Below are positions 12,135-34,711 of a stretch of DNA of 38,867 nt, one piece after another. A program made the position numbers and the translations under genes. Position 1 is the stretch's first letter. Each line of letters opens with the position of its first letter. The stretch covers positions 1 to 38,867 of IMG/VR virus record IMGVR_UViG_2526164634_000034; one strand, written 5' to 3'. Source of the stretch: a virus. Taxonomy: Duplodnaviria; Heunggongvirae; Uroviricota; Caudoviricetes. The notes below the pieces were generated by a model. That model did not search any database. It was given only the letters and a program-made list of their open reading frames with translations, and was not told the DNA's origin.

Positions 12135-12965
12135 TGATTACTCCTGGTTAACTCGGCATTAAGTCTGCCGGTGACTGTGGTGGTGACTGGAATTGCTGTT
12201 GTTGTGACTCGGCGACATCTTTCAGAAGGCGTATTGCCTCCATCACTGCTTTGTCATCGATGTTTCTGGCTTGAGCCAGTTTATAGACAGTGTTTGCCTG
12301 ACTCTCCATCGCATCCTGCTGGGCAGTAAATGCTTTGATTTGAGTTTGAGCAGTTTCGTTAGTTGCTTTTTGCGCTTCTGCCTGCGCTGCTACCATTTGC
12401 GCCTGAGCGAGAACCATTTCAGGATTTGGCTGGCTTTGTGCTGCCATTTGCGCCTGTTGAACAATCTGCTGCTCTTTCTCATTGCGTGGTTTTGCAATAC
12501 CAGATATCAGCAGTTGGTTTCGGTTGTACTCTTTGAAGTCATCAAGGCCTTCGCCATCGATATTGTCCAGAATAATACCCTGAATTGCCGGGCGCATTGG
12601 GTCTGTTGGAAGCATAGAGCTAAGGACATTTGTCAGTACAGAAACCGTTGCATCACGTCGTGCTGTGTAGCTTGGTCCAACATCAACCGTCACATCGTAT
12701 CGACCGACAGAAAGGTCATTTAACGCAACAACAGCCCCTGTTTGCCTGTCAACAACCTGTGCGCTCAGGACAGCGATATCATCACTTCCATCTTCGTTAA
12801 CGATGCGCACTTCACGTTCTGAACCGTACACTTCACGCGCCATTGACAGCCATACTTCACCAGCGCGTTTAAGACTTTTCGCCATATTATCCAGATAGAT
12901 AAACGAAGCCATATCTGCTCTGTTCATCAAGTTGTTAACCGTTTCCTGAGCAATATTACTTGGCA

Positions 12966-14294
12966 CTGAGAGATCCCCTCATAATTTCCCCAAAACGTAA
13001 CCATGTGTGAATAGATTTTGAGTAAGCAGGGTTGCAGCCACGAGTGAGTCTTCCCTTGTTATTGTGTAGCCAGAATGCCGCAAAACTTCCATGCCTAAGC
13101 GAACTGTTGAGAGTACGTTTCGATTTCTGACTGTGTTAGCCTGGAAGTGCTTGTCCCAACCTTGTTTCTGAGCATGAACGCCCGCAAGCCAACATGTTAG
13201 TTGAAGCATCAGGGCGATTAGCAGCATGATATCAAAACGCTCTGAGCTGCTCGTTCGGCTATGGCGTAGGCCTAGTCCGTAGGCAGGACTTTTCAAGTCT
13301 CGGAAGGTTTCTTCAATCTGCATTCGCTTCGAATAGATATTAACAAGTTGTTTGGGTGTTCGAATTTCAACAGGTAAGTTAGTTGCTAGAATCCATGGCT
13401 CCTTTGCCGACGCTGAGTAGATTTTAGGTGACGGGTGGTGACAATGAGTCCGTGTCGAGCGCTGATTTTTTCGGCCTTTAGAGCGAGATTTATACAATAG
13501 AATTTGGCATGAGATTGGATTGCTTTTAGTCAGCCTCTTATAGCCTAAAGTCTTTGAGTGACTAGATGACATATCATGTAAGTTGCTGATAGGTTTCCAG
13601 TTTTCCGCTCCTAGGTCTGCATATTGTACTTTTCCTCTTACTCGACTTAACCAGTACCAACCCAGCTTCTCAACGGATTTATACCATGGCACTTTAAAGC
13701 CAGCATCACTGACAATGAGCGGTGTGGTGTTACTCGGTAGAATGCTCGCAAGGTCGGCTAGAAATTGGTCATGAGCTTTCTTTGAACATTGCTCTGAAAG
13801 CGGGAACGCTTTCTCATAAAGAGTAACAGAACGACCGTGTAGTGCGACTGAAGCTCGCAATACCATAAGCCGTTTTTGCTCACGGATATCAGACCAGTCA
13901 ACAAGTACAATGGGCATCGTATTGCCCGAACAGATAAAGCTAGCATGCCAACGGTATACAGCGAGTCGCTCTTTGTGGAGGTGACGATTACCTAACAATC
14001 GGTCGATTCGTTTGATGTTATGTTTTGTTCTCGCTTTGGTTGGCAGGTTACGGCCAAGTTCGGTAAGAGTGAGAGTTTTACAGTCAAGTAAGGCGTGGCA
14101 AGCCAACGTTAAGCTGTTGAGTCGTTTTAAGTGTAATTCGGGGCAGAATTGGTAAAGAGAGTCGTGTAAAATATCGAGTTCGCACATTTTGTTGTCTGAT
14201 TATTGATTTTTGGCGAAACCATTTGATCATATGACAAGATGTGTATCTACCTTAACTTAATGATTTTGATAAAAATCATTAGGGGATTCATCAG
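12966..14294 (-). mobile_element. IS10 (1329 bp) with 9-bp target-site duplication TACTTGGCA
   Basis: Terminal sequences CTGAGAGATCCCCTCATAATTTCCCC (12966..) and ...AATCATTAGGGGATTCATCAG (..14294); identical 9-bp direct repeats at 12957..12965 and 14295..14303. Confidence 0.95.
12979..14187 (-). CDS. IS10 transposase
   Basis: 402 aa, MCELDILHDSLYQFCPELHLKRLNSLTLACHALLDCK..., matching the recalled IS10 (Tn10) transposase. Confidence 0.95.
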   Translation of the reverse strand: MCELDILHDSLYQFCPELHLKRLNSLTLACHALLDCKTLTLTELGRNLPTKARTKHNIKRIDRLLGNRHLHKERLAVYRWHASFICSGNTMPIVLVDWSDIREQKRLMVLRASVALHGRSVTLYEKAFPLSEQCSKKAHDQFLADLASILPSNTTPLIVSDAGFKVPWYKSVEKLGWYWLSRVRGKVQYADLGAENWKPISNLHDMSSSHSKTLGYKRLTKSNPISCQILLYKSRSKGRKNQRSTRTHCHHPSPKIYSASAKEPWILATNLPVEIRTPKQLVNIYSKRMQIEETFRDLKSPAYGLGLRHSRTSSSERFDIMLLIALMLQLTCWLAGVHAQKQGWDKHFQANTVRNRNVLSTVRLGMEVLRHSGYTITREDSLVAATLLTQNLFTHGYVLGKL

Positions 14295-15614
14295 TACTTG
14301 GCATCTGCTGCATGGCCTGACTGCCGCCTGTAACCTCCTGAATATCAGCACTGGTTTGCTGTAGTAATGCAGCCAATGCCTGATTCATAACCGCAGGCTG
14401 TGTATATCCTGCCGGGGTAGCTCCAGCGATAATGTTGCCAGATTTATCTCTCACTTCGCGCAACGGCAAGAACGCTGGGCGTTTCTTGTTGCGAGCCTCC
14501 CAGTGCTTCTCAAGTCCACGAATTTGCTCCATGCCAACTATAGGGATCTGACCGGGGTCTTGCGCTGCAGTATCAGCCAGCATTGAAACCTGAAGGTTGT
14601 ACAAACGCTGTGGATCCATTGCTTTTGCAATGTGCCCTTCGACACGCTCAATGTCATCAATGAACCAGCGTTTTCCATAAACCGGGATGAGGGGGATATG
14701 CTCACCAGGAATACGTCGAGGTTTCTCAAGGAAACCATCACCATCCACTACGGATACATACACACGACGGCGCTTCACTGAGCGCCTTGCCACTTCCTGA
14801 AATCCAGCTATTGCCAGTTCATCTTCAATATCTTCAACCTGATCACTGTCGTATGTTGCAATCTCTCCAGTGATTGGATGTCGATAACTGATGACGTCAA
14901 CAGACTCTTTACGAACTTCGTAATACTTCGCTATGTAAATAACATCTGCACCAAACCAGTTATATTCCCAACTGGTCATAGACGTTACATCCAGAGAAGT
15001 GGGAGGTTTCTTTCCGTATTCAGCCTCATATTTTTCAGGTGACAACGAATACATACAGAACGCCCACAACGCGTCAGATTTGTCGTACTTCTTAGCGTCA
15101 GGGTCAAACCACACAGAGCGCGACGGGTCGTATATTGGTTCAATAGCAATACGCTGACGATCGTCCATGGGGTCGTATTCATTGACCAGCATCGACGCCA
15201 AACGGAAGCAACCGAAACCACCAGTAGCAGCGTCGTCAAATGCATTATCGCAAGCCTCACCGCCATCAGTTTCTTCGTAGTCAGCACGGAACAGACCATT
15301 TAATTTATTGGCTAACTCTTCGCTTGCCTCTCTGTCACCAGGACGAAACTTAACGGTTATTCTGTTATTGCGGTATTCTGCAATGATGCGGTTAAGTTCA
15401 GTTGCTACCTTATTGATTTCAAACTTAGGATACTTCTCGAACTGCTCATCAAGCTTAGTTCCAGCCGCCGTTGCTCCTTCCCATTGACCTCCGGGGACAC
15501 GAGCAAACCTCGTAGCTTCAATGCACTTTTCGCGCACTTCCTTCTGTGGAGAATAGGCGCGGTCAAACCTGAGCATGATCCGCTCATGTTTTTTCTCTAA
15601 TGTCTCTGCCATGT

Positions 15615-17027
15615 TTACCAACCGGAGGATGAGGGAACGTATATTTCTGTTTCTTCGCGGACCAATGCCGGGAAATGCATACACATCATCAGCGCATCAG
15701 CCAGGTTAGGAGATGGAATACCGAGCTTCTGCTTCATTTCGACCTTAGTCATAAGCTCCAGCTTCCCGTTATTATTGAATTTGCGCTGAATCTGAGTCAG
15801 TTCTGCAAACAGCTTCTCCAGCATCTTCTCGCCTATCGCTTCTTTGTCGAAACTCAGCATGTCGTCGGGGTCTGCATACTCACCGTGAACAACCGCCCGA
15901 TATGTCAGATACAGCCTGTCAGCCAGCGCATAATAGAATTGCGCTCGCTTATTGCGGAATACATCGCCAATAGTGCGAACGTTGTCGCCCTGTACTACTT
16001 CATCAGCCCATGCTCCGGCCTGATACGGCGCATCTTCATCGAATGGCGATTCGCTGCCCTTGAACATCGTGGCGGTGATTTTCTTGCCGGAGAACGCTTC
16101 CGTTGTCTGTCTGCGTAGCCCGGCACCAACACCATCACCATCCCACAGGTAGTGGTCAGCGCCGTCTTCAATCGCCAGAGAAGTAGCCCAGTCAGCACCC
16201 TCGTTGATGTCCATCAGCAGACCTTCGGCAATGCGTTTAACTACCGAACCGTGGCGCGATGCGTAACCTTTAGCATCTGGCCCTGTATCTGACGGGTCAT
16301 GTGCAGAAACAACAGCGCCTTTCGCTTTCCATCCGAGTTTCTTGTGCGCATCGGTTGCGGCTTCAAGCCATTCACGTTTGATGATTGCCATATCACTTGC
16401 GCTTACCGGCTCACCAAGCCAGATGTGACGATACAGTGTCGGGTTTCTGCGTTTACACTCTTCCATCTCCAGACGGAGAACTTCAGGAAAGTGCGGGTTG
16501 TCGGTGTAGTTCACCGTCAGCAGACAAATATCATCAGGAGGGTTTACGACGAATCGCTGATAGGTATCGTCGAGGATGTTTTTCGGGTTAAAGCTCACCC
16601 ATATTTCGGAAAACGGCTTGCGGATTGTTGGGATCAGGATATCCCACGATTCCTTTGTTACCGCTTCCGCTTCTTCCACCCAGCAGATATCAATGCCTTC
16701 GAGCGATTTAATCTTCGTCGGGTTGTTTTTGATGCCGTAGAACATGAACTCAGCATTCGTTCCGAGATGACGAATCATGGAACGCTGAATTTCAAACTCA
16801 GCCGAATACCCTTCACGCTCGATGGTATCTTCAAGCAACCGGATTACCGAATCGCTGATACTGTTTTGCAGTTCACGAGCGCAGAGTATGCGCACAGGCT
16901 GCCGACGCGCCGCTTCAACAAGCAGCCTCGCAATTGCCCATGACTTACCGCTACCTCGACCGCCTTTGGCGACTTTGTAGCGATGCGCCTCAATGAACGG
17001 TTCAAAGATAGGATTAATCGAGGTCAT
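15615..17027 (-). CDS. Terminase large subunit
   Basis: 470 aa (Sf6 gp2 size) with Walker A-like KVAKGGRGSGKS near the N-terminus; stop overlaps the portal start. Confidence 0.9.
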   Translation of the reverse strand: MTSINPIFEPFIEAHRYKVAKGGRGSGKSWAIARLLVEAARRQPVRILCARELQNSISDSVIRLLEDTIEREGYSAEFEIQRSMIRHLGTNAEFMFYGIKNNPTKIKSLEGIDICWVEEAEAVTKESWDILIPTIRKPFSEIWVSFNPKNILDDTYQRFVVNPPDDICLLTVNYTDNPHFPEVLRLEMEECKRRNPTLYRHIWLGEPVSASDMAIIKREWLEAATDAHKKLGWKAKGAVVSAHDPSDTGPDAKGYASRHGSVVKRIAEGLLMDINEGADWATSLAIEDGADHYLWDGDGVGAGLRRQTTEAFSGKKITATMFKGSESPFDEDAPYQAGAWADEVVQGDNVRTIGDVFRNKRAQFYYALADRLYLTYRAVVHGEYADPDDMLSFDKEAIGEKMLEKLFAELTQIQRKFNNNGKLELMTKVEMKQKLGIPSPNLADALMMCMHFPALVREETEIYVPSSSGW

Positions 17028-27746: not shown

Positions 27747-28433
27747 ATGGATAAATACGAACAAAGACGACTAAGGCTGATAGAGATAAGAGACCGATTC
27801 TGTAATGGAAAGGCCTCAGAGTTGGCTCGTCGAATAGAAAGGGAACCATCATACGTTTCCAGAATGCTGTATCCGGAAGGAAAAAGCGGAAAAAAACGCA
27901 TTGCTGACGATATGATGGAGCTAATTGAAAAATCTTTTAATCTCCCACGCGGATGGATGGACATGCTTGCAGATGGTAAAGCTGGAGCTACGGACCATCT
28001 TGAGTTTGCGGGTAACGTTCGTGCGGGTTTTGTTCCGGTAATTGGTGAAGCCGTTTTGGGAGTTGATGGCTCAGTGGATATGATTGAATTCAGATCCGGT
28101 TGGTTAAGCATCTACAGCGGCGATAAAGATGCTTACGGTCTGAAGGTTAAGGGTGACAGCATGTGGCCAAGGATTCAGTCAGGAGAATATGTTGTTATTG
28201 AACCAAATACGCCAGTACATCCAGGTGATGAAGTCTTTGTAAGGACCAAAGACGGTCACAACATGATAAAGATCATGAACAAAACAAGAGACGGTGATTA
28301 TCAGTTTAGTAGCATAAACAGTGATCACCGCCCAATCACTCTTCCTGTTGAAGAAGTTGATAAAATGCATTTTGTTTCAGCTATTGTGAAACACACCAGG
28401 TACGTAGACCAGGACGATCTGCCAAAAGTTTGA
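27747..28433 (+). CDS. cI: CI repressor (HTH plus LexA-like S24 autoprotease domain)
   Basis: 228 aa; C-terminal domain with catalytic Ser (GDSMWP) and downstream Lys; divergent from cro. Confidence 0.9.
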   Translation: MDKYEQRRLRLIEIRDRFCNGKASELARRIEREPSYVSRMLYPEGKSGKKRIADDMMELIEKSFNLPRGWMDMLADGKAGATDHLEFAGNVRAGFVPVIGEAVLGVDGSVDMIEFRSGWLSIYSGDKDAYGLKVKGDSMWPRIQSGEYVVIEPNTPVHPGDEVFVRTKDGHNMIKIMNKTRDGDYQFSSINSDHRPITLPVEEVDKMHFVSAIVKHTRYVDQDDLPKV

Positions 28434-28447
28434 GGATAAAGCAGCAA

Positions 28448-28744
28448 ATGTTTATACCCGGCATAGTAGTCGCTGTTGTAATCATCTGCTTCATATGGGC
28501 AAAGTTATCTCCTGTAAGCTCTAAGCATACAGCTGAACTCATGAGGAAGAAGCATCTTATACATGAGGCAGAATCGATAATTAAAAAGTTCAAAGGCATG
28601 TCATACGACGACATGTCATCAGAGCAGATTGCTATGTATAAATGCGCCATTGAGCGCCTTGACTACTTAAACGGACTCAAACCCAAACACACCCCAGTAG
28701 AATCAAAATTGCCGCAATGGCCAAGCAATCCAAATAGCTTCTGA
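28448..28744 (+). CDS. Small single-pass membrane protein at the rex position (candidate exclusion factor)
   Basis: 98 aa from ATG 28448 (GAGGA upstream; the track ORF begins at TTG 28430); N-terminal transmembrane helix FIPGIVVAVVIICFIWAKL; co-oriented with cI and followed by a terminator. Confidence 0.5.
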   Translation: MFIPGIVVAVVIICFIWAKLSPVSSKHTAELMRKKHLIHEAESIIKKFKGMSYDDMSSEQIAMYKCAIERLDYLNGLKPKHTPVESKLPQWPSNPNSF

Positions 28745-28922: not shown

Positions 28923-28953
28923 TGCTCTTAAAAATTAAGCCCTGAAGAAGGGC
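28923..28953 (+). promoter_or_regulatory. nutL (boxA + boxB)
   Basis: TGCTCTTAA...GCCCTGAAGAAGGGC; matches recalled lambda nutL with one boxA substitution (T for C). Confidence 0.85.
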
Positions 28954-29221
28954 AGCATTCAAAGCAGAAGGCTTTGGGGTGTGGTGAAGCCAGCTAGTCA
29001 CTGGCAAGTGCTTACCTACTGTTGAGCGGTGAAGCGCTCCCAACGCTAGCAATAGCGTGGACGAGATGGGGAGCCGCGGGCGATAAGGCCGCCATAACGC
29101 GCACGTTGTCGCATGGAAAAATCGCTGGGGTGCCGGTTATACCCATCCGAATGAGACTCAACAAGCTGGAGCTAGACTACCAGCCACCACACCACCAAAG
29201 CTAACTGACAGGAGAATCCAG

Positions 29222-29548
29222 ATGGATGCACAAACACGCCGCCGCGAACGTCGCGCAGAGAAACAGGCTCAATGGAAAGCAGCAAATCCCCTGTTGGTTG
29301 GGGTAAGCGCAAAACCAGTTAACCGCCCTATTCTCTCGCTGAATCGCAAACCGAAATCACGAGTAGAAAGCGCACTGAATCCGATAGACCTTACGGTGCT
29401 GGCTGAATACCACGAACAGATTGAAAACAACCTGCAACGTATTGAGCGCAAGAATCAGCGCACATGGTACAGCAAACCACGCAGTGAAATGGGTGTGACT
29501 TGTGTTGGTCGCCAGAAAATGAAATTAGGCAGCAAACCACTTATTTGA
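29222..29548 (+). CDS. N: Antiterminator N
   Basis: 108 aa, MDAQTRRRERRAEKQAQWKAANPLLVGVSAKPVNRPILSLNRK... with arginine-rich motif; near-identical to recalled lambda N in its N-terminal two thirds. Confidence 0.95.
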   Translation: MDAQTRRRERRAEKQAQWKAANPLLVGVSAKPVNRPILSLNRKPKSRVESALNPIDLTVLAEYHEQIENNLQRIERKNQRTWYSKPRSEMGVTCVGRQKMKLGSKPLI

Positions 29549-29569
29549 GGTGAGGGTAATGACTCCAAC

Positions 29570-30073
29570 TTATTGATAGTGTTTTATGTTCAGATAATGC
29601 CCGATGACTTTGTCATGCAGCTCCACCGATTTTGAGAACGACAGCGACTTCCGTCCCAGCCGTGCCAGGTGCTGCCTCAGATTCAGGTTATGCCGCTCAA
29701 TTCGCTGCGTATATCGCTTGCTGATTACGTGCAGCTTTCCCTTCAGGCGGGATTCATACAGCGGCCAGCCATCCGTCATCCATATCACCACGTCAAAGGG
29801 TGACAGCAGGCTCATAAGACGCCCCAGCGTCGCCATAGTGCGTTCACCGAATACGTGCGCAACAACCGTCTTCCGGAGCCTGTCATACGCGTAAAACAGC
29901 CAGCGCTGGCGCGATTTAGCCCCGACGTATCCCCACTGTTCGTCCATTTCCGCGCAGACGATGACGTCACTGCCCGGCTGTATGCGCGAGGTTACCGACT
30001 GCGGCCTGAGTTTTTTAAATGGCGGAAAATCGTGTTGAGGCCAACGCCCATAATGCGGGCGGTTGCCCGGCAT
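29570..30073 (-). CDS. insB: IS1 transposase InsB
   Basis: 167 aa, [37 protein letters not shown]... Confidence 0.95.
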
Positions 30074-30267
30074 CCAACGCCATTCATGGCCATATCAATG
30101 ATTTTCTGGTGCGTACCGGGTTGAGAAGCGGTGTAAGTGAACTGCAGTTGCCATGTTTTACGGCAGTGAGAGCAGAGATAGCGCTGATGTCCGGCGGTGC
30201 TTTTGCCGTTACGCACCACCCCGTCAGTAGCTGAACAGGAGGGACAGCTGATAGAAACAGAAGCCAC
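29992..30267 (-). CDS. insA: IS1 InsA
   Basis: 91 aa, [40 protein letters not shown]... Confidence 0.95.
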
Positions 30268-30333
30268 TGGAGCACCTCAAAAACACCATCATACACTAAA
30301 TCAGTAAGTTGGCAGCATCACCTGAGGTGAGAT

Positions 30334-30804
30334 ATGACAAAATCATGGAGAGTACCTTTTCCTGAATCAGAAACTGAACATGATGGAATGCCTGTTTTCT
30401 GGAGATTCCAGGCGACAGTTGAAGAAGATGGGATAAAAATATTCGCACTTCAATATATAGCTTTTCATCAGACAGAGCATTATGCATGGTTGGTTCCTGC
30501 GCATTGGATTGTTAATTTTAAACCAGCACCAAATCAGTGGTTACAGGAATGGAAACAAAGGAGAAATAGATATGCAATTAAGAAAGTAGCAAAAAATGCA
30601 GAAAGATCTTTTGCATTCCCAACGAAGAAACTTGCTATTGAAAGTTTATTGCGCCGGAAGAAATACCATTTAATGAGAATAAAACAAGATTTGGCTGTTG
30701 TATCAACTCTTGTTGATGGGATGAAAAATATTGATACATCAACACCAGATATTGAATATAACTTTGGACACAACCAAGAAACAGAAAATTGGGTATTCTA
30801 CTAG
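30334..30804 (+). CDS. Hypothetical 156-aa protein, first gene after N (ral position)
   Basis: ORF whose Shine-Dalgarno lies inside the IS1 target duplication; AT-rich by eye; no recognisable motif. Confidence 0.55.
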   Translation: MTKSWRVPFPESETEHDGMPVFWRFQATVEEDGIKIFALQYIAFHQTEHYAWLVPAHWIVNFKPAPNQWLQEWKQRRNRYAIKKVAKNAERSFAFPTKKLAIESLLRRKKYHLMRIKQDLAVVSTLVDGMKNIDTSTPDIEYNFGHNQETENWVFY

Positions 30805-30828
30805 GCCGCATAGTCGGCCTTTATTTTT
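30803..30828 (+). terminator. Rho-independent terminator
   Basis: AGGCCG-CATAGT-CGGCCT followed by TTATTTTTGG, immediately after the 156-aa ORF. Confidence 0.55.
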
Positions 30829-30850
30829 GGCATAAATAACAGAGGCTAAC

Positions 30851-31147
30851 ATGGAATTTAAAGGTACTGAAGGTAAATGGGAAATAATGATGGATGGCGA
30901 TGAGATTAAAATCATCCAGGCAGACTCTCTTGAAAATGGCACAGGCTGGCGTTCGTATATTGCAATCTGTGAGGAAGTTCAATGCATTGAAGATGCCAAT
31001 CTAATAGCGGCAGCACCTGACCTTCTCGAAGCACTTCAGTTATTACTTAAGCAAACCAAAAATAGAACAACGACAACATATCCAGAATGGTATGGAGCTG
31101 TTAATAAAGGTCTCGCAGCAATCAGAAAAGCCATAGGTGATGAGTAA
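30851..31147 (+). CDS. Hypothetical 98-aa protein
   Basis: Contains ANLIAAAPDLLEALQ, loosely resembling the NAEFIAAANPATVLALLDE segment of the Ea22-like protein at 37317..38033; preceded by AGGCTAACATGG. Confidence 0.5.
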   Translation: MEFKGTEGKWEIMMDGDEIKIIQADSLENGTGWRSYIAICEEVQCIEDANLIAAAPDLLEALQLLLKQTKNRTTTTYPEWYGAVNKGLAAIRKAIGDE

Positions 31148-31305
31148 TGAATAAGAAATACATCGTTGAAGTTATAGAGCGAGAAACGAAAGAAGTAATT
31201 AAACATTTCGAATTTGATAATTATAGAAAAGCTGACCGCGTAGAAGAAGGATTGTTGCGACAAAGTAATCTCGAAAAATTTGATGTTGTCATGCGATGCG
31301 AATAA
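31147..31305 (+). CDS. Hypothetical 52-aa protein
   Basis: Start overlaps the upstream stop (TAATG); MNKKYIVEVIERETKEVIKHFEFDNYRKADRVEEGLLRQSNLEKFDVVMRCE; not in the ORF track (<60 aa). Confidence 0.35.
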   Translation: MNKKYIVEVIERETKEVIKHFEFDNYRKADRVEEGLLRQSNLEKFDVVMRCE

Positions 31306-31396
31306 GCGCCTATAGCAGATTTACGAGTCTGCTATGTGAGCAATGTCGCTCGTAACTAAACAGGAGCCGACTTGTTCTGATTATTGGAAATCTTCT

Positions 31397-31424
31397 TTGC
31401 CCTCCAGTGTGAGGGCAATTTTTT
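31397..31424 (+). terminator. Rho-independent terminator
   Basis: TTGCCCTC-CAGTGT-GAGGGCAA followed by TTTTTT. Confidence 0.55.
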
Positions 31425-31523
31425 GACGGAGGAAATATGAAATTACGTGTCTGGCATATCCCGCAAGTACCTATGAAGCCGTTCATTGTAGAAGTGGCAA
31501 GTGTTGAAGAGGGTGTTCGCCTG

Positions 31524-33593
<2,070 letters not shown>

Positions 33594-33742
33594 TTATCAG
33601 AGATGGGGCTTACGGATCGCTGGGTAGATTGGTACAGCGAATGCCAATGTTACGACGCCCCACGTAAATATATCGAAAGCCTGAAAGAAGAAACCTCAGC
33701 AGCCTGAGCGCGGATTTGACGCATACAAATTAAGGAGGATAT

Positions 33743-34711
33743 ATGAGTGAAGTAACAGATTTAGTTGTTATTGAAAAAGCAAATGCAATGACTGTATTTC
33801 AGTCTGCCGACCAGATTGAAGAAATCCTTCAAAAGGTTGAACGTGAAGTTATGTCCTTTGTGCCTGATATCACAACGGCAAAGGGCAGAAAGGAGATCGC
33901 TTCTCTGGCGTATAAAGTTGCGCAGACGAAAACATATCTCGATGGTCTTGGCAAAGACCTTGTTGCTGAACTGAAGGAAATTCCAAAGCTAATTGATGCC
34001 AACCGCAAGACAGTGCGCGATCGCCTTGATGAACTGAAAGCCAAGGCGCGCCAGCCTCTTACTGATTATGAGGAAGAACAGGCGCGGATTAAAGCCGAAG
34101 AAGAAGCTAAGGCAGCAGCTGAAGCTCTCGCAAAGCAAATTGAGTCTGACCATGAAATAGCGATTTTGATGGATCGCGAATTTGACCGCCAAAGAGAAGA
34201 GGCAAGACTCAAAGCGGAGCAGGAAAAGCGAGAGCATGAAGAACGCTTAAAAAGAGAAGCTGAAGAGAAAGCCAGAGCAGAAGCCGAAGCAAAGGCAAAA
34301 GCCGAAATTGAAGCAGCAGCAAGGCGAGAAGCAGAAGCTAAGGCCGCAGCGGAACGTGCAGAGCGTGAACGCATTGAAGCCGAGCAACGAGCACAGCGCG
34401 AAGCAAAAGAGGCAGCAGAACGAGCTGAAAGAGAAAAGCAGGCAGCAATTGAAGCAGAACGCAGAAAAGCACAGGAGGAGGCTGAACAAATCCGTCGCGA
34501 TGCTGAAGCAAAAGAGCAAGCCAGAATAGCAGAAGAAAAAAGAATCAAGGACGAAGAAGAGCGTAGAGCAAAGGATAAAGCTCACCGGAAAGACGTAAAT
34601 AACAAAATACTTGCTGACCTTATCAAGGTTGGTGCATCAGAAGATGTTGCTAAAAATATCATAACAGCCATCGTAAAAGGCGAAGTATTCGCAACAAAAA
34701 TAACCTACTAA
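33743..34711 (+). CDS. Hypothetical 322-aa protein with long charged coiled-coil region
   Basis: Structured N-terminal ~100 aa, then about 170 aa of E/A/K/R-rich heptad-like sequence and a short C-terminal domain; preceded by AAGGAGG. Confidence 0.5.
   Translation: MSEVTDLVVIEKANAMTVFQSADQIEEILQKVEREVMSFVPDITTAKGRKEIASLAYKVAQTKTYLDGLGKDLVAELKEIPKLIDANRKTVRDRLDELKAKARQPLTDYEEEQARIKAEEEAKAAAEALAKQIESDHEIAILMDREFDRQREEARLKAEQEKREHEERLKREAEEKARAEAEAKAKAEIEAAARREAEAKAAAERAERERIEAEQRAQREAKEAAERAEREKQAAIEAERRKAQEEAEQIRRDAEAKEQARIAEEKRIKDEEERRAKDKAHRKDVNNKILADLIKVGASEDVAKNIITAIVKGEVFATKITY

Follow-up and report, generated by a model that had tools for sequence, protein, structure and literature searches.

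What three short, AT-rich genes downstream of the antiterminator gene N contribute to a lambdoid phage is the question raised by positions 30,334 to 31,305 of IMG/VR record IMGVR_UViG_2526164634_000034, a stretch of 38,867 nucleotides (nt) that was analyzed at its full length and is referred to here as the window. By its gene content, the window is a lambdoid prophage resembling P22, with genes for a tailspike, DNA-transfer proteins, a portal of the P22 type, O-like and DnaB-like replication proteins, a repressor of the LexA type, and Erf. The cassette of three open reading frames (ORFs) consists of two independently mobile modules that meet at a terminator hairpin: module 1 is ORF1 with its terminator, and module 2 is the translationally coupled ORF2-ORF3 pair between terminators. 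We read the cassette, with moderate confidence, as promoterless accessory genes of the pL operon that would act during early lytic growth in host interaction or counter-defence. An anti-defence function in the strict sense is plausible and is held less firmly than the early-lytic reading as a whole. The features of the cassette, all on the + strand, are as follows.

30334-30804, + strand: ORF1, 156 amino acids (aa), full-length match to phrog_1636 (E 1.9e-111); module 1
30803-30828, + strand: intrinsic-terminator-like hairpin (30803-30820) with T run, -9.6 kcal/mol, overlapping the ORF1 stop codon
30851-31147, + strand: ORF2, 98 aa, full-length match to phrog_1273 (E 3.5e-31); module 2
31147-31305, + strand: ORF3, 52 aa, full-length match to phrog_6949 (E 3.2e-40); module 2
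31311-31336, + strand: stable 11-bp hairpin without a T run, -16.3 kcal/mol (z = -2.3), directly 3' of the ORF3 stop codon; module 2
31397-31424, + strand: intrinsic-terminator-like hairpin (31397-31418) with an 8-bp stem and TTTTTT, -13.2 kcal/mol, upstream of gene 17

Judged by their sequences, the three ORFs are real genes, because they have full-length matches to phage families as well as conserved homologues; the families phrog_1636, phrog_1273 and phrog_6949 are all phage protein families of unknown function. An earlier note on this DNA had described three co-oriented ORFs of these lengths and positions, translational coupling of the last two, a higher AT content than the surroundings and a terminator after each unit, and these descriptions were borne out. 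The ORF2 stop and the ORF3 start overlap in the sequence TAATG. The GC content of the cassette is 36.9%, compared to a mean of 47.7% (standard deviation 2.9, z = -3.8) for 665 equally sized windows of 972 bp outside insertion sequence (IS) elements, among which the cassette has the lowest value; its composition therefore differs from that of the flanks. The GC content at third codon positions is 26-30% for the cassette ORFs versus 45% for N. Hairpins followed by a T run lie at 30803-30820 and 31397-31418, one after each unit. The number of terminator-like hairpins in the region is not above shuffle expectation (4 found versus 3.1 expected), and the two terminators are credible because they are placed at the ends of the units and are conserved at recombination junctions; the segment with the terminator at 31397-31424 is kept upstream of gene 17 in phage H-19B. 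The hairpin at 31311-31336 could be a processing or stability element.

The modular anatomy is evident from related phages. H-19B and many Shiga toxin (Stx) phages share 29496-30812 and then 31338-31525 with the window and are devoid of ORF2-ORF3; the shared parts comprise about 50 nt of the 3' end of N, ORF1, part of its terminator, the gene 17 leader and gene 17. Phage APC_JM3.2 shares 30803-31424 (622 bp) at 99.2% identity, i.e., the terminator hairpin, ORF2, ORF3 and the second terminator. The hairpin at 30803-30828 is the left end of the APC_JM3.2 segment and the right end of the H-19B segment, and because both segments end there, we place the join of the modules at this hairpin. When module 1 moves, it is accompanied by the 3'-terminal ~50 nt of a lambda-type N gene. 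The full three-gene arrangement is found in an E. coli H5 prophage, where the genes are annotated as hypothetical proteins and no IS1 is present. We also observed that this N relic (29496-29548; 2451-2503 of the extracted H-19B locus) accompanies ORF1 even where the N gene of the phage is unrelated; in H-19B, it lies just 3' of the stop codon of the phage's own N. A relic after an unrelated N implies a recombination boundary inside the 3' end of N. The 31311-31336 hairpin is part of the 622 bp shared with APC_JM3.2 at 99.2% identity.

ORF1 is a basic protein (isoelectric point (pI) 9.3; 10.8 for residues 66-130) that is 97-99% identical across E. coli phages and present in 86 phage records, chiefly Stx-converting phages. 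Among 83 viral-contig loci, N was found upstream of ORF1 in 77, either directly or with one to three small ORFs in between, and the gene 3' of ORF1 was a DUF2528-like gene (20 loci), gene 17 (10), cIII (9) or ORF2 (8). A scan of species-representative genomes returned only seven loci (E. coli, Rosenbergiella, Brenneria, Pectobacterium). In Pectobacterium and Brenneria prophages, the ORF1 homologue (57-62% identity; 4001-4477 of the extracted locus in both cases) is the gene immediately preceding xis-int and does not adjoin N, such that the ORF1 family changes place from one end of the early-left operon to the other. When 1.84 billion representative proteins were searched with a profile, the family grew to ~88 phage proteins of roughly 140 aa (phrog_13631, phrog_25384), all of which are uncharacterized and encoded in early regions amid other small genes; these neighborhoods were uninformative, and one distant homologue lies directly after a Cro-like helix-turn-helix (HTH) gene. 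The basic central helical region in the ORF1 model suggests a nucleic acid or an acidic protein as a possible partner, and profile searches detected no DNA- or RNA-binding domain in ORF1. An AP2-like or integrase-arm-like DNA-binding fold, an idea prompted by a three-strand sheet followed by a helix and by the motif "RFAF-TKE-A", was dropped for lack of profile support.

ORF2 is acidic (pI 4.5) and bears a conserved EDANLIAAAPDLLEAL motif that is invariant or nearly so in 32 homologues. The two features of the P22 orf78 family, a ...LIAAAP(D/E)LLEAL... motif and a C-terminal AAIxKALG tail, are both present, and PF27050 is listed (precomputed) for nearly all ORF2 homologues. Given 37.5% identity over the C-terminal 48 aa (E 3.8e-4; tblastn against the P22 region from gene 24 to gene 17), ORF2 is a distant homologue of P22 orf78. 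Elsewhere, genes of the ORF2 family are paired with various unrelated small downstream ORFs or, in P22, with the DUF551-like orf87. ORF3 is 100% identical to ATN92755.1 of APC_JM3.2 and was found in only three phages (APC_JM3.2, mEp043 and mEp213), always just 3' of an ORF2-family gene. In mEp213, the ORF2-family gene and ORF3 are located between two annotated N-type antiterminator genes of the same operon, one HK244-like and one HK620-like (2144-2476 and 3629-3901 of the extracted locus). Two further observations concern the domain structure of ORF2: large phage genomes (~63-172 kb, mostly ~145 kb; phages of Klebsiella, Salmonella, Proteus and Escherichia) encode counterparts of its N-terminal half (residues 4-52) with 45-55% identity, and some E. 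coli homologues keep the C-terminal half and have a different N-terminal half. The switch occurs at the LIAAAPDLLEAL motif, which suggests domain shuffling at this point in the ORF2 family.

The expected timing of expression follows from the position of the cassette relative to N and its loading site, which lie upstream as listed here.

28923-28953, + strand: nutL, with boxA CGCTCTTAA and boxB GCCCTGAAGAAGGGC, assigned from sequence and hairpin; its role is to load N onto pL transcripts
29222-29548, + strand: lambda-type antiterminator N, 108 aa, PF11438 (N36, E 1.5e-26) and phrog_271

The boxA and boxB elements at 28923-28953 are presumably the lambda nutL sequence, and boxB was also detected as a hairpin on the - strand. 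A consensus scan for sigma-70-like promoters on the + strand of 30323-31436 returned none. Because ORF1-3 lack an own promoter, run in the direction of pL and are preceded by nutL, they would be off in the lysogen and transcribed soon after infection or induction. In the IS-free arrangement, the first terminator after N is the 30803-30828 hairpin behind ORF1. Since ORF1 lies ahead of it, ORF1 would be immediate-early and made from the same transcript as N, while ORF2-ORF3, which lie behind it, would be delayed-early and reached only by N-antiterminated transcription. Ral, Gam, Kil, cIII and gp17 of this operon act by binding host factors. The likeliest action of the cassette products would similarly be to bind a macromolecule of the host or of a competitor in the early phase of lytic growth, resulting in counter-defence or host takeover; binding is favored because ORF1-3 match no known enzyme family and have no predicted membrane span.

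Searches for function were negative throughout. Scans of ORF1-3 against NCBIfam and a Pfam copy that lacks PF27050 gave no match, toxin and antitoxin families included, and the PADLOC scan gave only a chance-level match to Cas1 (E 0.018). PDB sequence searches with ORF1 and ORF2 as single sequences and with a 33-member ORF1-family profile returned chance matches only, and no membrane span was predicted in ORF1-3. The earlier note had seen no recognizable motif in the 156-aa protein, which held up in the Pfam, NCBIfam, PADLOC and PDB searches, and the remote homology and structure searches revealed no homology to proteins of known unrelated function. Its suggestion of an early anti-restriction, anti-defence or exclusion function is supported by position and found no supporting family, structure or fold match. 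Literature searches with the PHROG identifiers, PF27050 and the LIAAAPDLLEA motif returned no papers; broader searches led to the screen of Silas et al. (see below) and to descriptive genome papers.

Several results weigh against an early-lytic, counter-defence role. The promoter scan covers sigma-70 consensus sites only. The xis-int location of the Pectobacterium and Brenneria homologues indicates that linkage of ORF1 to N is not obligatory. Neither family nor structure or fold searches support a function in anti-restriction, anti-defence or exclusion: from family alignments, AlphaFold2 produced an unreliable ORF1 model (predicted local distance difference test (pLDDT) 60.5) and an ORF2 model (pLDDT 69.8) in which only the C-terminal helical hairpin is confident, and fold searches with these weak models yielded nothing significant. 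Silas et al. (bioRxiv 10.1101/2023.04.06.535777; Nat Commun 2025, PMC12373910) screened a library of 200 accessory genes in which ATN92755.1, and hence ORF3, is listed as orf149/UDP0149, and orf149 is not among the genes named in these two reports as having a counter-defence or cell-death-trigger phenotype, a statement that covers the named genes. In the paper on phage phi345, which carries ORF1, DefenseFinder yields only anti-restriction-modification methyltransferases, Ral and Gam. In favor of the role, the screen of Silas et al. selected the ORF3 gene as an accessory gene and places orf184 in the accessory region of ral (bioRxiv 10.1101/2023.04.06.535777), and in mEp213, ORF3 lies ~1 kb from orf184.

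An alternative explanation is that the genes modulate phage development, be it transcription or antitermination, the choice between lysis and lysogeny, or replication or recombination, in the manner of cIII and kil, with ORF1 as a nucleic-acid-binding regulator made together with N. The tight linkage of ORF1 and N in E. coli phages (the N 3' relic, a spacer of 8 nt, 77 of the 83 loci), the very basic helical core of ORF1 and the distant homologue behind a Cro-like HTH gene are what one would expect of such a regulator, as is the near invariance of ORF1 (97-99%) across E. coli phages, since true arms-race genes usually vary. However, many lambdoid phages, including lambda and P22, lack ORF1, which argues against a part in the core programme, in other genera the homologues lie at the end of the operon that carries xis-int, and no DNA- or RNA-binding domain was detected; we consider this explanation unlikely. 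A bolder version of the counter-defence idea is that ORF1 founds a new family of immediate-early effectors and that the ORF2-family gene with its variable small partner is a second, swappable counter-defence unit. ORF1, co-transcribed with N before antitermination and enriched in Shiga-toxin phages, would then use its basic helical core to neutralize a host defence or a host factor for transcription or its termination within minutes after infection or induction begins. We regard this proposal, too, as speculative and improbable in its full form.

The foreign, AT-rich composition and the terminators that bracket the units are a classic moron signature, and sieB occupies the same slot in P22, all of which could instead indicate true morons in the manner of sieB, rexAB or cor, i.e., exclusion or defence genes that are transcribed in the lysogen and act against other phages. 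This is quite unlikely, as the + strand showed no promoter-like site inside the modules or immediately 5' of them, and the 8 nt between the N stop and the ORF1 start leave no room for one. ORF1-3 are moreover co-oriented with pL, which is repressed in the lysogen, whereas P22 sieB lies on the opposite strand with its own promoter, and they have neither membrane spans nor PADLOC defence-family matches. For ORF2-ORF3 alone, the small size and overlap of the two genes and the finding of ORF3 only beside an ORF2-family gene in its three phages would fit an addiction or toxin-antitoxin-like pair that stabilizes the prophage or aborts infection. We judge such a pair very improbable: ORF2-family genes are found with several unrelated small ORFs or with the P22 DUF551-like orf87, the module has no promoter of its own and no toxin-antitoxin or defence family match, and ORF3, which many E. 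coli strains carried by itself in the Silas et al. screen, was not named lethal there. Promoterless accessory genes of the pL operon, acting early in lytic growth, remain our preferred reading of the cassette.

The state of the present copy is determined by IS elements, which the earlier note had missed together with the two-module mosaic. Those around the cassette, and the gene 17 parts that they separate, are listed here.

29546-29554, strandless: left copy of the 9-bp IS1 target-site duplication, TGAGGTGAG, read from sequence
29555-30322, - strand: complete IS1, 768 bp, with inverted repeats and Pfam matches for InsA and the IS1 transposase (InsB)
30323-30331, strandless: right copy of the IS1 target-site duplication, TGAGGTGAG, read from sequence
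31437-31525, + strand: 5' part of gene 17 (P22-type), PF17420 (E 1.9e-13), cut by the IS100-like element
31526-33479, - strand: IS100-like element of the IS21 family, 1954 bp, istA/istB, with inverted repeats and Pfam matches for IstB and rve
33485-33707, + strand: 3' part of gene 17, whose reading frame continues past the IS100-like element

IS1 sits in the 8-nt spacer between N and ORF1, with insA/insB antisense to pL transcription, and the 9-bp duplication TGAGGTGAG includes the N stop codon and the Shine-Dalgarno sequence of ORF1. When IS1 is removed, 8 nt remain between the N stop (TGA) and the ORF1 ATG. The cassette had been described as lying directly after N, which is incorrect for this sequence, where 768 bp of IS1 intervene, and correct for the IS-free arrangement, whose exact N-ORF1 junction was found in 68 related loci, including H-19B and the E. 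coli H5 prophage. IS1 between N and ORF1 was absent from all fetched related loci. Among complete E. coli RefSeq genomes, none matches at least 80% of 29150-31700 in one place, and hence none carries both IS junctions. In the present copy, IS1 would impose polarity on ORF1-3; only N-modified transcription is expected to read through IS1. The IS100-like element, flanked by a 5-bp duplication (CTGAT at 31521-31525 and 33480-33484), interrupts gene 17, and its excision restores a 103-aa reading frame (intact gp17). The portal gene is likewise in two pieces (12148-12966 and 14257-15684, both PF16510), separated by an IS10-like element with a 402-aa DDE transposase (12979-14187) and an Rfam RNA-OUT match (14180-14249, 97 bits). 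Three different IS elements (IS1, IS100-like and IS10-like) are thus present in one prophage, a load that might, as a mere guess, fit a Shigella-like host. Because its portal gene is split by the IS10-like element and gene 17 by the IS100-like element, the prophage is defective and cannot form virions. Since IS1 uncouples ORF1 from N and the prophage is dead, the cassette in this copy is probably an intact but idle passenger.

Two neighboring genes were noted in addition. At 28430-28744 (+ strand), directly 3' of the cI-like repressor gene, lies a 104-aa ORF (phrog_10450, unknown function) whose TTG start overlaps the repressor stop and whose product has a hydrophobic N-terminal stretch, FIPGIVVAVVIICFIW. 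The counterpart of this position in lambda is occupied by rexAB, and as a candidate exclusion gene with expression in the lysogen, the ORF ranks above the ORF1-3 cassette. The gene after gene 17 (33743-34711, + strand, 322 aa; phrog_1376) is similar to Sf6 gene 33 and annotated elsewhere as 'TolA-like cell envelope biogenesis protein'; it displays an extreme A-over-T skew, especially at 34000-34600 (AT skew up to 0.74), suggesting a low-complexity charged repeat region.

Overall, ORF1-3 occupy a known accessory hotspot and belong to hypothetical genes that are common in E. coli prophages and have been catalogued before. In lambdoid phages, the position after N is known for anti-restriction and exclusion genes, and most of its occupants are unnamed. 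ORF1 is nearly unchanged in many Stx1 and Stx2 phages, and its position suggests synthesis at the same moment as N; its target could bear on the infection of new hosts by Shiga-toxin phages or on their induction there. The novelty of the present copy is limited to the natural IS1 insertion between N and ORF1, and the value of the locus is that of a pointer to three testable candidate genes, not of a discovery.

Among known systems, the closest parallel is the P22 slot. The annotated P22 record has sieB/esc, ral, orf78 and orf87 between gene 24, its N analogue, and gene 17, which according to the annotation permits growth on a Fels-2 lysogen; this agrees with the earlier note, which had placed ral and sieB at this position in lambda. 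The same N-to-gene 17 interval in the window holds ORF1-3. The two slots share the operon, the orientation of the pL genes, the flanking N analogue and gene 17, and small non-essential genes. P22 orf78 further resembles ORF2 in its AAP(E/D)LLEAL...AAI(G/R)KALG region, and an overlapping small ORF follows in both. In contrast, ORF1 and ORF3 have no counterpart in P22, and the window lacks a self-promoted gene on the opposite strand like sieB, for which the P22 record annotates an own promoter. The region between N and cIII in lambda, with ral and sieB, is the equivalent slot. ORF1-3 are similar to Ral in being placed in the pL operon shortly after an N analogue, but show no sequence homology to it (Pfam, NCBIfam and tblastn of ORF1-3 against the P22 24-17 region). 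They differ from SieB in the lack of homology, of a + strand promoter, of a hydrophobic span (grand average of hydropathy -0.27 to -0.83) and of a PADLOC match.

The phrog_1636 gene of Stx phages and further lambdoid phages of E. coli (H-19B, whose record does not annotate it; PA28; Stx2 phage 86, orf57; Bas106, gp42) is 97-99% identical to ORF1 and has the same position after N and the same terminator. The gene behind it is gene 17, a DUF2528-like gene or cIII, and not the ORF2-ORF3 pair. Upstream of ORF2-ORF3, APC_JM3.2 has an unrelated 207-aa gene in place of ORF1. A moron, in the sense of Juhala and Hendrix, is a gene that has been inserted between core phage genes together with a promoter and a terminator. 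The earlier note had called the cassette moron-like, which is appropriate for its deviant base composition and 3' terminators, and its insertion between conserved genes and its independent horizontal mobility fit as well. The resemblance is only partial because no promoter was found in the cassette, which is moreover embedded in, and co-oriented with, the early lytic operon. ORF1-3 are best read as early-lytic genes of the pL operon and not as classic morons.

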